Shown here: positions 24,618 to 34,463 of the stretch, piece by piece
Layout of the letters: each line of letters begins with the position of its first letter
Numbering within the stretch: position 1 is the stretch's first letter
NCBI GenBank assembly: GCA_048940445.1
Contig: JBHLON010000033.1
Location: 1-34,463 of the forward strand
Length of the DNA stretch: 34,463 bases
Direction: 5' to 3'
Origin: Promethearchaeota archaeon
GTDB taxonomy: Archaea; Asgardarchaeota; Lokiarchaeia; Sigyniarchaeales; SOKP01
The notes under the pieces: generated by a model
Seen by the model: the letters and a program-made list of their open reading frames with translations, nothing else
Database searches by the model: none
Told to the model about the DNA's origin: nothing
Translations under genes and position numbers: made by a program

Positions 24618-25757
24618 TTAATGATTTAAAAAGGCGGGTTTGGGAAAATCCGTTCCTTCAATAGTAGAAGTTACATATGGAGATATCGGACCTCTCCCTA
24701 AAGCCATTATTCTTATTTTTGATTTTAGTGAAGGATCAAGAGCAGTCCCGAATTTAAGCGAGGCTTCTTCGGGAATTTCACTTGAAATTGTAGCGATTAT
24801 CTTGTCGATTTTGGATAAAGAGATTTTATGGTCGCCTGTTACTGATACAATACATTTATCGACTTGCATAGGATCAGGTTCTAATAGAGGATTATGCAGA
24901 GCTAGTTTAGCCTTTTTAATCAAGTCTGATCCGTCCCCAAAAGATTCTGTAATACCAATCAATCCGCTAGGAATTTTATCTTTTTTCTCAAAAACTTTCC
25001 TAACATCAGCATAATCAATATTTATCAAACCACAATTATTAATGAGATTAAGAATTTCACGAATGCATCTAATTAAAACCTCGTCCATAATTTTAAACCC
25101 AGTCAGGATTGGAATGTTTTCATTAAATCTTAGAAGATTATCATTAGGAATAGGTATAAGACAGTCAGTGTATTGAATTAATTCCTCAAGTCCCGATTTA
25201 GCCCTTTTTTTTCGCTCTTTTCCTTCAGAGGTAAATGGAATTGAACAGAAAGTAACCACAGTTGCATTATTTTTCTTGGCTTCTCTTGCCACTATAGGAG
25301 CAGCACCAGTCCCAGTCCCTCCACCTAAACCAAATGTTAAGAAAACAACATCTGCTTTCAATGTTTCTGACAATCTTTCTATATCTTCTTCGGCCGCTGT
25401 AGCCCCAATATGAGGGTCGTTTCCAGATCCTAATCCATTACAAGTTTCCTTGCCTATTAAAAGCTTTTTATTAGCATTAGAATAATATAGGTCATGAGCA
25501 TCGGTATTTATATTTAAAGTTTCTACGAAATCATTTCCAATATCTTGCATTCTTGATACAGTATTATTCCCTGCTCCGCCAATTCCTACAACAGTACTTC
25601 TAATCTTTAGAATTTTTATTAGATCAGATAGATATTTATCATCATCTAGGTTTAAGGATTGATTATTTTTATTATAACGAGCAATTTCATTAAAACGAGA
25701 TCTAACTGATATTCTTGATTTTGCAAGATCAGTTAAATCATATTCTTTATCATTCAT
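24618..25757 (-). CDS. ftsZ: Cell division protein FtsZ
   Basis: VVGIGGAGNN, INTD, G.GSGNDP, tubulin signature GLGGGTGTG, PF.SEG, T7 loop INIDYAD. Confidence 0.97.
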   Translation of the reverse strand: MNDKEYDLTDLAKSRISVRSRFNEIARYNKNNQSLNLDDDKYLSDLIKILKIRSTVVGIGGAGNNTVSRMQDIGNDFVETLNINTDAHDLYYSNANKKLLIGKETCNGLGSGNDPHIGATAAEEDIERLSETLKADVVFLTFGLGGGTGTGAAPIVAREAKKNNATVVTFCSIPFTSEGKERKKRAKSGLEELIQYTDCLIPIPNDNLLRFNENIPILTGFKIMDEVLIRCIREILNLINNCGLINIDYADVRKVFEKKDKIPSGLIGITESFGDGSDLIKKAKLALHNPLLEPDPMQVDKCIVSVTGDHKISLSKIDKIIATISSEIPEEASLKFGTALDPSLKSKIRIMALGRGPISPYVTSTIEGTDFPKPAFLNH

Positions 25758-26075: not shown

Positions 26076-26315
26076 ATGGAAATTGATTATAATAAAGAGA
26101 GTAGCGCAAAATCGGGAAATAATTCAGAGAGTAAACAATCTGTTATAAATGTTAGAGCTATTTTAAGTTGTCCTTCTTGTGGGTATAAAAAGAAATTTAA
26201 AAATCAATTTTCTCGAGATCAATTAGAGCTCTTGATAGTAGCTGTCAAAATTTTCGATTTTATGACATGTAGTTGTGGTGAATTAATAAACTTAGATTTA
26301 GAGTTTAATTTTTAA
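26076..26315 (+). CDS. Small zinc-ribbon protein
   Basis: CPSCG and CSCG pairs; divergent from ftsZ. Confidence 0.75.
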   Translation: MEIDYNKESSAKSGNNSESKQSVINVRAILSCPSCGYKKKFKNQFSRDQLELLIVAVKIFDFMTCSCGELINLDLEFNF

Positions 26316-29892: not shown

Positions 29893-30975
29893 TTAATATT
29901 TTGAAGGAGTTTTTGATTTTATTTTATATTTTGGTATCTCTTTAACCTTTCTTAATTCATTCTCAAATACTCTTTTTTCTTTAAGAAATCTCTCTTTGTC
30001 ATTCTCTAATTTTTCTCTTTCCCTTCTAATAGTATCTTTTTCATTACTAATATTTACCTTTTCTTTTTCTAATTGTTTTATTTCATTGTTTAATCCTTTG
30101 TATTTATCTTCTAATCCACTGATTTTATGTTCTAATGAAAAAAATGTGTTTTCTGCCTTTGGGACTTTCTTATCTAACTCACTTAATCTTGCCTCTTGTG
30201 TTCGTTTCTTCCGTTCTAAATCTTTTACATCATTTTCAACTTTGTCTCGAAATTTTTCTAAGTCTGTTCTTTTCTTTTCAATTTCACGATTTTTATCTTT
30301 TAGGTCTTTTCGTTTATAACGTAATTTTTCTTTTTCATCCTTTAATTTTCTTCTCTCATCATTGATCCTATTTTTTTCATCAACAATTTCTTTTTTCATA
30401 TCACCTATTTCTTTTTTCAGATTGTCTCTATCTTTACCCAATGCTTTTGTCTCATTTCTTAAATCAAGCAGTTCAGCTTCTAATTTTTCAATGGTTCTCT
30501 CTAAAGCTTCCTCTCTCCTTTCCATTCCTGGAATTTTAGTTTTTATTTGTTTAATGTGCGACTCTGCTCTTTCTTTTTCTTTTCTTAAGTCATCCTTATC
30601 CTTTTCTAACGCAGCTTTTAATTTACTTAGTTCGGTATTCTTTTGATCTAATTCTCGCTCTTTTGAATCTAGATCATTTCTATATTGTTTTACTTCATTT
30701 TTCATTCTTTGTAATTCATTTTGTAAGTTTCCATGTTGATCTAAAAGGTCTTTAACTTCAAGTTCTTTTTCTTTTCTTTTCTTTTCAAGATCTTTAATAT
30801 TATCCTTATATCCTTCAATTTTTTCGATTAATTTTTCCCATTCAACTTTCTCTTTCTTTAATTTTACTCTTTCTTGCTTTATCTGTTTCAATAATTTAGC
30901 ATCTGGAACAATATCTAATGTTTCTTCTGGTGTTTTTTCTCGAATTTGATATTTAGGTATTTTATTTTCTTTCAT
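29893..30975 (-). CDS. Long coiled-coil protein with matching IPKY..KTP end motifs
   Basis: ~320 aa of K/E/R-rich heptads; N-term KIPKYQIREKTP and C-term EIPKYKIKSKTP; no ATPase motif and no TM segment. Confidence 0.85.
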   Translation of the reverse strand: MKENKIPKYQIREKTPEETLDIVPDAKLLKQIKQERVKLKKEKVEWEKLIEKIEGYKDNIKDLEKKRKEKELEVKDLLDQHGNLQNELQRMKNEVKQYRNDLDSKERELDQKNTELSKLKAALEKDKDDLRKEKERAESHIKQIKTKIPGMERREEALERTIEKLEAELLDLRNETKALGKDRDNLKKEIGDMKKEIVDEKNRINDERRKLKDEKEKLRYKRKDLKDKNREIEKKRTDLEKFRDKVENDVKDLERKKRTQEARLSELDKKVPKAENTFFSLEHKISGLEDKYKGLNNEIKQLEKEKVNISNEKDTIRREREKLENDKERFLKEKRVFENELRKVKEIPKYKIKSKTPSKY

Positions 30976-31155: not shown

Positions 31156-31533
31156 ATGGGTTTTGATGAAGAATTTGATGATGAATTTGATGAAGATTTA
31201 GATGAAGATTTAGATGAACCTTCTACTAAAACTCCTACTGAAGAGGTTAAATCCAAGACCCCTAGTGTAAAACCAGTTGTTGAAGGAAAAAAGATTTCAG
31301 TATTCTTTTTATCAACTATAGGACCTGGGGAGAAAAAGCAAAAACTTTTAGTTTATACAGGAAACAAAATAGGAGAAATAAAAAAAACTGTAGCTAATTT
31401 ATTTGGTCTAGATCCTGCAGATTTTCATTTGTCTTCTGGAGGGGTTACTATGGAAGAAGATGCTGCATTAGCTGAATATAATGTAGCAGAAGGAGATGAT
31501 ATTTTATTAATTCCAGCAAGTACAGCGGGTTAG
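31156..31533 (+). CDS. Ubiquitin-like protein 1 (acidic N-tail, ends LIPASTAG)
   Basis: IGEIKK..FHLSSGGVTMEED..L.EYNV..GDDILLI parallels ubiquitin IENVKA..QRLIFAGKQLED..L.DYNI..ESTLHLV; terminal Gly directly before the stop; AGGTGG SD-like motif. Confidence 0.88.
   Translation: MGFDEEFDDEFDEDLDEDLDEPSTKTPTEEVKSKTPSVKPVVEGKKISVFFLSTIGPGEKKQKLLVYTGNKIGEIKKTVANLFGLDPADFHLSSGGVTMEEDAALAEYNVAEGDDILLIPASTAG
31162..31218 (+). repeat. 12-bp imperfect tandem coding repeat, (F/L)D(E/D)(E/D) x ~5
   Basis: tttgatgaagaa tttgatgatgaa tttgatgaagat ttagatgaagat ttagatgaa. Confidence 0.85.
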
Positions 31534-31579: not shown

Positions 31580-32386
31580 TCATTTTTTTTCTTTTCTGGA
31601 AGGAATTAAGACAATCTCATCGTCATCATCTAAGTTATATTCAACCATTTTCAAATTTTCTTGTAAGATTAAACCTCCAGACGAGAGTACAAAATTACTT
31701 AAATCGTAATTGAATAGAACTCCCAGTTTCTCCTTGATTTCATTTACTAACTCAGAAGTTTCAATAATAATTATTTTAGTTTTTTCACCAGATTCGATTA
31801 AAGATCTGACATAAACTCGTATTCTATCTTGCATTCCAATATTTATTTTAGGGGGAGTGAAGATAATTAGTTGATCAGGATTATCTTTATTCTTTAACAT
31901 ATCCTCAATTAATTGCTTTCTTTCTTGAGGAGAAAAATACAATAATTCCCTTAAAAAAAAAATTTTGTCCATTTTTGAAAGATTTAGAAGATCAATTTTC
32001 TCCAATTCTTCTAAATTAAAAACTGAGAAGAGATAATCATCCATTGAGGGTATCTCATTATATGATTCATGTGAATTTGCATAGTTATCTATTAGAGGCA
32101 TTGCATCAAAATAATCCTCAATAAATTCACTTGTTTTTTTCCTTAATGATTTTTGTTTAGGCATAAATTTAGGTTTTGTAATCCTTTTATTAGGGACATA
32201 TTTAGACTTTTTTATAATATAAAAAGTACCAGTAGATACTACTGCTACACTACTAATCGTAAAAATAAGATAAAAAGGGAAGGATTCTATTTTTAATAAG
32301 AACAGAATTAGATAAACCAATATGAACATTGTATAAAGAGTAATAATTCCTATAATTCTAAATCTTTTTATCATGATTTTTTTCAT
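31580..32386 (-). CDS. Two-TM membrane protein with C-terminal ubiquitin-like domain lacking a terminal Gly
   Basis: Two N-terminal hydrophobic helices; C-terminal SGEK..VNEIKEKLG.LF....F.LSSGG....EYNL..DDEIVLIPSRKEKK aligns with the neighbouring Ubls. Confidence 0.85.
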   Translation of the reverse strand: MKKIMIKRFRIIGIITLYTMFILVYLILFLLKIESFPFYLIFTISSVAVVSTGTFYIIKKSKYVPNKRITKPKFMPKQKSLRKKTSEFIEDYFDAMPLIDNYANSHESYNEIPSMDDYLFSVFNLEELEKIDLLNLSKMDKIFFLRELLYFSPQERKQLIEDMLKNKDNPDQLIIFTPPKINIGMQDRIRVYVRSLIESGEKTKIIIIETSELVNEIKEKLGVLFNYDLSNFVLSSGGLILQENLKMVEYNLDDDDEIVLIPSRKEKK

Positions 32387-32448: not shown

Positions 32449-33126
32449 TTAGTTTGATCTATTATTGATCAATTTGAGAATGTAATGATATTTTTCTAAA
32501 TCTAATTCAAATAAAGGTCTTTTATTTTCCTTTTCAACATTTATAATTTTTAAATTAGTTAAGACCTTTATGTACTTCTTAACTGTATTATAATTTTTTT
32601 TCAATTCTTTTGTGATTTTTGTTAATTTTACTTTTTTATTTTCTACTTTCATGAATTCAATTATTTCTTTTACGATATCTTGATTGAGATAATAATAAGG
32701 CTCATCTAATTCTGGATTTGAATCATATTCAAAAACAACTCGTTGATTTTCAATCTTTCGTGATCGTGTAAGTTGGAATTTCTCTAAGCATGATAAATGC
32801 CACAGAGCTTGATTACTCCCAATATTTATAGCTTTCATGATCTCATTAATATTTGATGGATTTTTTTTGATGTAATTGTATATTTCATTTCTTATTGGAT
32901 GTTCAATTATATTATTTTTCATTAGTTTTGTTCCAGGAATTATTATTCGTTTTTTGATTAGATTCTTTATGATTTTCTCAATCTTATTTCTATTTAAGTA
33001 AGGATAAGCTCTCGATCTATTATTAATAAAAGATATAATATTCTCTAATGAAAAGAAAGGTTTCTTATTTAGGTATTCTTTTACTAGTTCAAGAACAACA
33101 GAATCAACTTTATCTGGAGAACTCAT
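32449..33126 (-). CDS. Tandem winged-helix transcription regulator (ArsR-like/COG3398-like)
   Basis: R.EIYNYI..NP..INEI......WHL..LE.F and a second HTH LTKITKELKKNYNTVKKYIK.L. Confidence 0.82.
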   Translation of the reverse strand: MSSPDKVDSVVLELVKEYLNKKPFFSLENIISFINNRSRAYPYLNRNKIEKIIKNLIKKRIIIPGTKLMKNNIIEHPIRNEIYNYIKKNPSNINEIMKAINIGSNQALWHLSCLEKFQLTRSRKIENQRVVFEYDSNPELDEPYYYLNQDIVKEIIEFMKVENKKVKLTKITKELKKNYNTVKKYIKVLTNLKIINVEKENKRPLFELDLEKYHYILKLINNRSN

Positions 33127-33389: not shown

Positions 33390-33716
33390 ATGAGTTTTAA
33401 AGATGAATTTGATGAAGATTTAGAACCTGTTAAATCTAAAACACCAGTATCTAAAACTCCTGCTGCGGGAAAGAAATTAACTTTATATTTTATGTCAACA
33501 ATCGGACCTGGTGAAAAAAAGGAAAAATTAATCGTAAATGATGCTAATCAAGTGAATGACATCAAACAAACTTTAGGAAATCTATTTGGACTCGATCCTG
33601 ATGAATTTCATTTATCATCTGGTGGTGTTACTATGGAAGAAGATAGTCAATTAAGAGATTACAATCTGAGTAATGGTGACGACATTCTTTTAATTCCAGC
33701 AAGTACAGCTGGGTAA
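33390..33716 (+). CDS. Ubiquitin-like protein 2 (acidic N-tail, ends LIPASTAG)
   Basis: 56/82 identical to Ubl1 over the beta-grasp domain (hand count); directly upstream of the E1 gene. Confidence 0.9.
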   Translation: MSFKDEFDEDLEPVKSKTPVSKTPAAGKKLTLYFMSTIGPGEKKEKLIVNDANQVNDIKQTLGNLFGLDPDEFHLSSGGVTMEEDSQLRDYNLSNGDDILLIPASTAG

Positions 33717-33748: not shown

Positions 33749-33778
33749 AAGGGCAATTAGCCCCTTTTTTTTTCTTTT
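33749..33778 (+). terminator. GC hairpin plus oligo-T between the Ubl2 and E1 genes
   Basis: GGGC-AATTA-GCCC followed by C, T9, C, TTTT. Confidence 0.55.
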
Positions 33779-33798
33779 ATTTATTAAAGGTGACTATA

Positions 33799-34463
33799 AT
33801 GAATAATAAATCAGAGTTTTTTGGCAAGGGATTATCAAGCGAAGAAAGAAATTTGTATGATCGCCAATTTCGCCTTGAAGGATGGTCTCAGAAAATAGTA
33901 AAAAACTCGAGAATATTAATTGCGGGTGTGGGAGGTTTAGGATGTGAGATTGCTAAGAATTTAGCTATGTTAGGTATAGGTCACTTAGATCTTGTAGATT
34001 TAGATATTATTGAATATTCTAATTTAAACCGACAAATACTTTTCACAGGGGTAAAGGTCGGTGTCCCTAAAGCGATTGCAGCTGCTAAAAAGTTAAAAGA
34101 AATAAATCCCAACATTATTGTTAAGGGATATCACACTTCACTTGAGAGACTAGATCCTGCAATTTATCAAGTAGCTGATGTGGTCATAGGAGGCCTTGAT
34201 TCAATGAATGCGCGTTTAAACTTAAATGCCCAATGTATAAGATTTAGAAAGCCATTAGTAGATGGAGGAGTCTCTGGTTATCATGGTCATATATATACAA
34301 TTTTTCCCTATCAGAATGCCTGTTATGAATGTGACCCGCTGCCTGTAATGGAAAGTGATGAAATGGCAGCATGTACTGTTGTTGGCATACCTCGTAAGAG
34401 AATTCATTGTGTTTTTAAGGGAGATATGGCATTTAAAGAAAAATTTGATAGAGATCCAAATCC
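33799..34463 (+). CDS. Ubiquitin-like activating enzyme E1 (ThiF/UBA family, UBA2/UBA3-like), 3'-truncated by the window end
   Basis: Read by hand; ATG after AGGTGA; YDRQ, GVGGLGCE, VDLDIIEYSNLNRQ, GLDS..AR, DGG, CYEC, then AACTVVGIPRKRIHC; open to the window end. Confidence 0.95.
   Translation, partial: MNNKSEFFGKGLSSEERNLYDRQFRLEGWSQKIVKNSRILIAGVGGLGCEIAKNLAMLGIGHLDLVDLDIIEYSNLNRQILFTGVKVGVPKAIAAAKKLKEINPNIIVKGYHTSLERLDPAIYQVADVVIGGLDSMNARLNLNAQCIRFRKPLVDGGVSGYHGHIYTIFPYQNACYECDPLPVMESDEMAACTVVGIPRKRIHCVFKGDMAFKEKFDRDPN

Follow-up and report, generated by a model that had tools for sequence, protein, structure and literature searches.

An Ala-Gly-ending ubiquitin-family protein and its E1 operon in Asgard archaea, a probable second ubiquitin-type cascade

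To our knowledge, the archaeal ubiquitins studied so far all end in Gly-Gly. The ubiquitin operon architecture of Caldiarchaeum is biochemically active; its JAB protein trims the ubiquitin precursor, which is activated only after this cut (PMC5654768, PMC6043591). A Helarchaeia operon of the same architecture is also active (10.1101/2023.07.25.550441). Gly-Gly ubiquitins of the ESCRT pathway are described from Asgard archaea (PMC9192718), and Asgard homologues of UFM1 are treated in PMC12962969.

Here we describe a family of Asgard ubiquitin-like proteins (Ubls) that end in Ala-Gly, as found in a window of 34,463 nucleotides that makes up one contig (C68) of a Promethearchaeota archaeon genome of 93% completeness. 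The literature searched holds no Asgard family that combines an Ala-Gly end with an N-tail and a membrane RING protein (the Ufm1 set of PMC12962969 was not compared by sequence), and the tagging system is apparently unstudied so far.

Two ubiquitin-like proteins with a common Ala-Gly end

The gene for Ubl2 (33390-33716, + strand; 108 aa) is the first of an E1 operon. The protein has an N-tail (aa 1-26) that is acidic, then K/T/P-rich, and disordered, followed by a ubiquitin-fold core (aa 27-108) in which Ala-Gly stands directly at the stop codon. Its 125-aa paralogue Ubl1 (31156-31533, + strand) has a longer acidic tail and the same C-terminus, ILLIPASTAG followed by TAA or TAG. The common ending reported in the first-pass annotation is thus present in both open reading frames, and the disordered N-tail that it described is there as well. 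An assembly error at the stop codons was considered and there is no sign of one, contigs from three other studies spanning both with no change listed (a fourth run is possibly the source). Pro103, Ala104, Ala107 and Gly108 of Ubl2 correspond to ubiquitin positions 71, 72, 75 and 76.

The cores of Ubl1 and Ubl2 are identical at 56 of 82 positions (68%), and the last 13 residues, encoded in Ubl2 at 33675-33713 (+ strand), do not differ at all. The two genes have 10 differences within their final 45 nt, with synonymous changes, and the identity of the tails is therefore not the product of a recent duplication or of gene conversion. It had been taken to imply selection on the tail. However, a second block of 13 residues is also identical (core 47-59), and the probability of such a run is 0.11 anywhere in the pair and 0.004 at the very end, so the pairwise identity is a weak argument when taken alone. 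The case for a selected tail comes instead from the family alignment, in which the final nine columns are 93% conserved in 36 diverse members as against 66% elsewhere, with I-P-x-S-x-A-G invariant. Ala-Gly is likewise invariant, in 120 of 120 close homologues and in all 36 diverse rows, from Lokiarchaeia to Hodarchaeales. Selection on the tail is thus borne out on this broader basis, and the terminal Gly, whose loss among homologues had been named as an argument against a modifier, is retained throughout.

The core scores above the PF00240 cut-off, and 36 of 36 family members match that profile. A model of Ubl2 (pLDDT 92) superposes on ubiquitin (6nyo_E) with a Z score of 14.3 and an rmsd of 1.4 over 78 residues, placing its last Gly on Gly76; its top Foldseek match is Caldiarchaeum ubiquitin (TM 0.84), and the top matches among the 50 listed are of the ubiquitin/ISG15/NEDD8 type. 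Profile comparison gives 93% for Asgard Gly-Gly ubiquitin, 75% for ubiquitin and 2-5% for UFM1. These searches, which the annotation had suggested, agree with its description of the core as ubiquitin-like, and the profiles place the family with ubiquitin-type proteins. Nonetheless, the family departs from ubiquitin proper in several respects. First, every row ends in Ala-Gly where ubiquitin has Gly-Gly. Second, the equivalent of Ile44 is Ser in 35 of 36 rows. Third, Lys48 is replaced by Val, Arg or Ile, and Lys63 by Asp or Asn. Finally, the equivalent of Arg72 is Ala, Val or Ser, and never Arg.

The same genome encodes a Gly-Gly ubiquitin on another contig (C62), and the two families coexist in the genomes of many relatives. 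We considered whether Ubl2 is the Loki ubiquitin of Hatano et al. (PMC9192718), and rejected this identification because that Gly-Gly family is represented here by the C62 gene. Judged by its sequences, the Ala-Gly family is a predicted ubiquitin-family tag of Asgard archaea, second to the Gly-Gly ubiquitin. Standard di-Gly proteomics would miss it, since its computed trypsin remnants are 19 and 48 residues long.

A third copy of the domain is part of a membrane protein encoded at 31580-32386 (- strand); it has a basic end without Gly and is not conjugatable. This Gly-less membrane Ubl is kept in about 50 Loki loci and is a possible decoy or docking site. Elsewhere, the Ala-Gly Ubl is fused to Roadblock, HerA-like ATPase, Cdc48N-VWA and CxxC-bearing C-termini (P0235, P0249 and P0327; L127:10072-11814; L145:6583-7506); the Gly is still terminal, so whole fusion proteins could be conjugated as units. 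About 20 loci (L047-L126) have a stand-alone Ala-Gly Ubl with no E1 nearby, and one (L141) has the Ubl with a short RING gene only. The Gly-less domain, together with the fusions to HerA-like, Roadblock and VWA C-termini, would suit a non-conjugated adaptor whose tail is retained for binding only, yet in the free copies and almost all of the fusions Ala-Gly is terminal or stands a few residues from the end, and the Ubl directly precedes E1; we hold an adaptor to be highly unlikely.

The E1 operon and its gate

The window contains the N-terminal 224 aa of the E1 (33790-34463, + strand), with a ThiF domain, a CxxC motif, an invariant Tyr169 and a putative catalytic Cys195 (34372-34374, + strand). 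The gene runs past the end of the window. An exact overlap of 77 nt links the window to contig C70, which carries the rest of the gene and then the genes for the E2, the JAB protein and a membrane protein that has a RING-like domain at its C-terminus; cofactor genes adjoin the end of the operon. Ubl, E1, E2 and JAB thus lie in one cluster with intact motifs, the make-up of an archaeal ubiquitin-type operon. The cluster, including the membrane RING-like gene, is common to Lokiarchaeia, Hodarchaeales, Heimdallarchaeaceae and Borrarchaeum-like loci, and the catalytic motifs of its enzymes are intact in all loci compared. Of 301 Asgard genomes sampled, 122 gave a member of the Ala-Gly family. In one family (f9, 76 of the 301 genomes) the queries used matched neither the Ala-Gly family nor either of the Gly-Gly ubiquitins; should f9 be Thorarchaeia, this would agree with the absence of ubiquitin reported for that group.

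The operon E1 is nearest to the E1s of the canonical pathways, scoring 136 bits with UBA2, 134 with UBA1 and 125 with UBA3, as against 61 with UBA5 and 38 with ATG7, and it is collinear with UBA3 over residues 32-330. The E2 matches canonical UBC enzymes and has the HPN...Cys arrangement. The RING-like domain is of the form C4-H-E-C2, with Glu as the sixth ligand and a conserved Trp; RING Pfam matches are weak, and so are those of its model to U-box and RING chains (best E 0.007). A single terminal Gly, together with a locus that encodes both a RING-like protein anchored in the membrane and a Ubl bound to it, would also be expected of an ATG8-like tag joined through the membrane RING protein to a membrane lipid or another non-lysine group. 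Such a role is very unlikely given the low ATG7 score of the E1 relative to UBA2, the canonical E2 and the ubiquitin/ISG15/NEDD8 fold matches.

Several further genes were noted. The same genome has a second long E1, cut by a contig end (C138:16599-18040; UBA1 145 bits, UBA3 95, UBA2 89), a second E2 that stands alone (C52:3944-4453), and a third cassette (C110:21574-23784) with a short JAB, a 293-aa E1, an E2-like protein and a Gly-Gly Ubl on the opposite strand. Within the window, a double winged-helix protein encoded at 32449-33126 (- strand), divergently from Ubl2, is a possible regulator. Between Ubl2 and E1 lies a hairpin followed by a T-run (33749-33766, + strand), near chance level in the scan, through which the tag might be transcribed in excess of the enzymes. 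A promoter scan at the locus gave chance-level hits only, and a search for RNA data sets covering the locus listed none. An FtsZ-like gene (24618-25757, - strand) and a gene for a small CxxC protein (26076-26315, + strand) are syntenic in relatives (L005, L007).

The fit of the tail to the E1 was examined in a complex model of the Ubl core, an E1 from a close relative (two copies), ATP and Mg, which scored 0.70 where the best control scored 0.00; the mark is reached by 58 of 80 solved pairs and by 2 of 110 mismatched pairs, and the runs share at least 96% of contacts, with a partner pLDDT of at least 85. The modelled terminal Gly contacts E1 residues 49, 50, 135, 137, 160 and 161, which lie in its glycine-rich loop and GLD motif; core Pro77 packs against residues 165-167 and 304-306. 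The first-pass annotation had named a tail that fails to reach the E1 active site as an argument against its proposal, and in the model the Gly lies in the nucleotide pocket. E1-Ubl complexes have already been solved, and the pass may therefore derive from those known structures; the model is to be read as likeness, not binding.

Position 72 of ubiquitin is a known E1 gate (Uba1 Gln576, Uba3 Arg190; PMC3731359). At this gate the operon E1 carries an invariant Tyr in place of the Gln of UBA1, and this residue, Tyr169, is outside the confident contacts of the complex model. In the UBA1-like E1 on C138 the residue that faces Arg72 is Gln; this type of E1 and Gly-Gly ubiquitin stand apart from the Ala-Gly operon, in relatives too. 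A tag that never carries Arg72, with a Tyr gate in one E1 and a Gln gate in the other, suggests two insulated cascades. Human E1s take Ser at position 75, and residues other than Gly there block transfer beyond E1 or E2 (PMC3731359). The E2 and E3 here would have to be adapted to Ala75. Because the later human steps refuse Ser75, a natural Ala75 cascade is worth testing, and this one is small enough for rebuilding in vitro.

The first-pass annotation also proposed that the modifier needs no maturation protease. This holds for the products of Ubl1 and Ubl2, and was rejected for the family as a whole. First, 1-4 residues follow the Gly in 81 of 120 close homologues and likewise in 24 of the 56 copies directly upstream of E1, and some of these tails arise where the stop codon has lost a single base. 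Second, there are head-to-tail precursors of two and three units, each ending at Ala-Gly. Third, the operon encodes a JAB. Being born mature is thus a property of the Ubl1 and Ubl2 copies only. In the head-to-tail genes (P0197, P0198, P0277; L208-L210) every unit comes with a separate acidic tail and a K-T-P motif; their contigs are about 1.2 kb long and without neighbour genes. By analogy with Caldiarchaeum, the JAB here most likely trims the precursor likewise and also removes the tag.

We consider it probable, with good though not full confidence, that Ubl2 and Ubl1 are the tags of another canonical cascade of the ubiquitin type, which Asgard archaea have in addition to, and apart from, the Gly-Gly ubiquitin of the same genomes. 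From the observed sequences, gene order, conservation and fold model we infer conjugation and all of its chemistry, including a selectivity rule and an acceptor motif. The operon E1, probably a homodimer, would adenylate the terminal Gly and load the tag onto Cys195, from which it would pass to the E2; the membrane-anchored RING-like protein would help its transfer to a target lysine, and JAB would remove it and, in the tailed relatives, also cut the precursor behind its Ala-Gly. With a small residue other than Arg at position 72, facing the Tyr of the E1, the P-x-S-T-A-G tail probably keeps the cascade apart from Gly-Gly ubiquitin.

Relationship to UFM1 and to sulfur carriers

UFM1 ends in IPRD[RK]VG, and the IP-x4-G spacing that the annotation had taken as UFM1-like is formally the same in the Ala-Gly family. 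It is not diagnostic. Val70-Leu71 of ubiquitin stand at the same distance from Gly76 as Ile-Pro does from the last Gly of the family, and two ThiS-family proteins of the same genome end in P-x4-G; because the Pro is shared with these, Pro71 is probably an old beta-grasp trait. The resemblance of the last strand to the ThiS/MoaD proteins of the genome (GD-x-h-x-h-h-P-x4-G), as well as the cofactor genes after the operon on C70, might also speak for a sulfur carrier, or for a SAMP/Urm1-like tag that needs E1 alone. However, E2, RING and JAB are conserved together with the Ubl, the core scores 24 bits on ubiquitin as against 5 on a ThiS protein, and Gly-Gly ThiS proteins as well as a MoeB-like E1 are encoded elsewhere in the genome. 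Moreover, only 2 of 36 members match PF02597 (ThiS/MoaD), faintly (E 0.067), and the family has an E2 in its operon and no Gly-Gly end. We judge a sulfur carrier to be exceedingly unlikely.

A further reading is that the family is of UFM1 type, or an intermediate between UFM1 and ubiquitin, on the lineage leading to the UFM1 of eukaryotes. Beyond the single Gly and the Ile-Pro at positions 70-71, the family aligns colinearly with UFM1 across 73 columns, with a single gap and an equal beta1-beta2 loop length, and its pairwise E value to UFM1 is 0.02, compared with 0.9 for ubiquitin against UFM1. In the family tree, which is unrooted and built on 83 columns with long branches, a branch of UFM1 and a Njordarchaeales family joins among the Ala-Gly rows, and a group of Ala-Gly proteins and UFM1 is not rejected (p-AU 0.14). 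Nonetheless, the best tree keeps the Ala-Gly family within the ubiquitin clade, and the hhalign probability is 2-5% for UFM1, where Asgard Gly-Gly ubiquitin reaches 93%. PF03671 picks up no member, the family lacks the R-D that is invariant in UFM1, and the operon E1 is nearer to UBA2, UBA1 and UBA3 than to UBA5 and is paired with a canonical E2 with HPN. It is instead the Njordarchaeales Ubl family, found with PF03671, that matches UFM1 (89.5%, E 2e-6 by hhalign; our positive control); among ubiquitin-like PDB chains it matches UFM1 only, and it groups with UFM1 in the tree (99/98). That protein (L147:1501-1812, L148-L152) ends in [RK]D[LV]LG plus 1-6 residues, and adjoins an E1 of 270 aa that matches UBA5 best among PDB chains. 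UFM1 is absent from the best 50 matches listed in each of three fold searches, which by itself excludes nothing, and in the genome of the window, 93% complete, PF03671, PF08694 and two alignments gave neither a UFM1 nor a UFC1 above the cut-off. We regard a UFM1-type origin as quite improbable: profiles, partner enzymes and tree all point away from the UFM1 mosaic proposed earlier, and the description as an ancestral-type modifier has weak support. The UFM1 spacing and the protease-free state add nothing to the significance of the locus.

The N-tail motif and comparison with known systems

The N-tail of Ubl2 contains a VKSKTP motif (33429-33446, + strand), also present in Ubl1 (31246-31263, + strand), which is a candidate acceptor lysine or docking motif. 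S16-K17-T18-P19 is invariant in 45 close rows, and hydrophobic-x-[SET]-K-[TVI]-P occurs in 120 of 144 distinct N-tails, mostly of close Loki relatives and also of Hodarchaeales and Heimdallarchaeaceae. A nearby coiled-coil protein (29893-30975, - strand), a candidate substrate or partner, carries hydrophobic-x-[SET]-K-T-P at both ends (30945-30928 and 29922-29905, - strand), in up to three tandem copies. A proteome-wide enrichment of K-T-P was considered and set aside, as it is mostly explained by the locus itself and the pattern was picked after the locus had been seen. Outside the locus K-S-K-T-P is rare (2 against 0.9 expected) and other carriers of the K-T-P motif are unrelated enzymes, so the motif is not a general acceptor code. 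Nonetheless, since the family has no equivalent of Lys48 or Lys63, the motif lysine is the strongest candidate site for building chains and choosing targets, and a role in binding or phosphorylation is equally open. As part of the proposed cascade, this lysine would possibly be a preferred acceptor, giving chains through the N-tail as in SUMO2/3, where Lys11 provides the analogy, with the coiled-coil neighbour as a target.

NEDD8 carries Ala72, as Ubl2 does, and SUMO has a disordered, Lys-bearing N-tail. The best match of the operon E1 by bit score is UBA2, here in a single-gene E1. Both NEDD8 and SUMO end in Gly-Gly, unlike the Ala-Gly family, and the acceptor consensus of SUMO is psi-K-x-E rather than hydrophobic-x-S-K-T-P; the disordered tail and a conserved lysine motif are present, yet the motif differs. 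We raise as an unlikely but not negligible idea that this is an old second cascade of Lokiarchaeia and Heimdallarchaeia (including Hodarchaeales), SUMO/NEDD8-like and maybe sister to that branch. Its further part, that a UBA2/UBA3-like E1 excludes Arg72, an N-tail lysine is the acceptor for chain building and a short consensus marks targets such as the coiled-coil neighbour, we put forward just as tentatively. If true, ubiquitin and a SUMO/NEDD8-like pathway would have parted before eukaryotes arose.

UFM1 (PF03671) shares with the Ala-Gly family a single terminal Gly, Ile-Pro five residues earlier and short tails beyond the Gly, and differs in its use of UBA5 and UFC1 where the Ala-Gly operon has a canonical E1 and E2. 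The closest profile match is to the Asgard Gly-Gly ubiquitins (HeimAB125_14240, OdinLCB4_14240, Lokiarch_37670; PMC9192718), which have a similar beta1-beta2 loop motif and short tails past the Gly, whereas the Ala-Gly family has Ser at Ile44 and lacks Lys48, Lys63 and Arg72 equivalents. An Ala-Gly cascade beside Gly-Gly ubiquitin, in lineages near to eukaryotes, would mean parallel and insulated modifiers in Asgard archaea. The operon of Caldiarchaeum subterraneum (CsUb, E1, E2, a small RING protein and CsRpn11; PDB 6FJ7, 6FNO) has the same set of Ubl, E1, E2 and JAB genes, with a RING protein in the place of the RING-like one. The Asgard locus differs from it in the Ala-Gly end, a disordered N-tail of 26-43 aa, a membrane-anchored RING protein and the presence of two or more paralogues. 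The architecture is already known, and it is the combination of the Ala-Gly end, the N-tail and the membrane RING that the papers searched do not describe.
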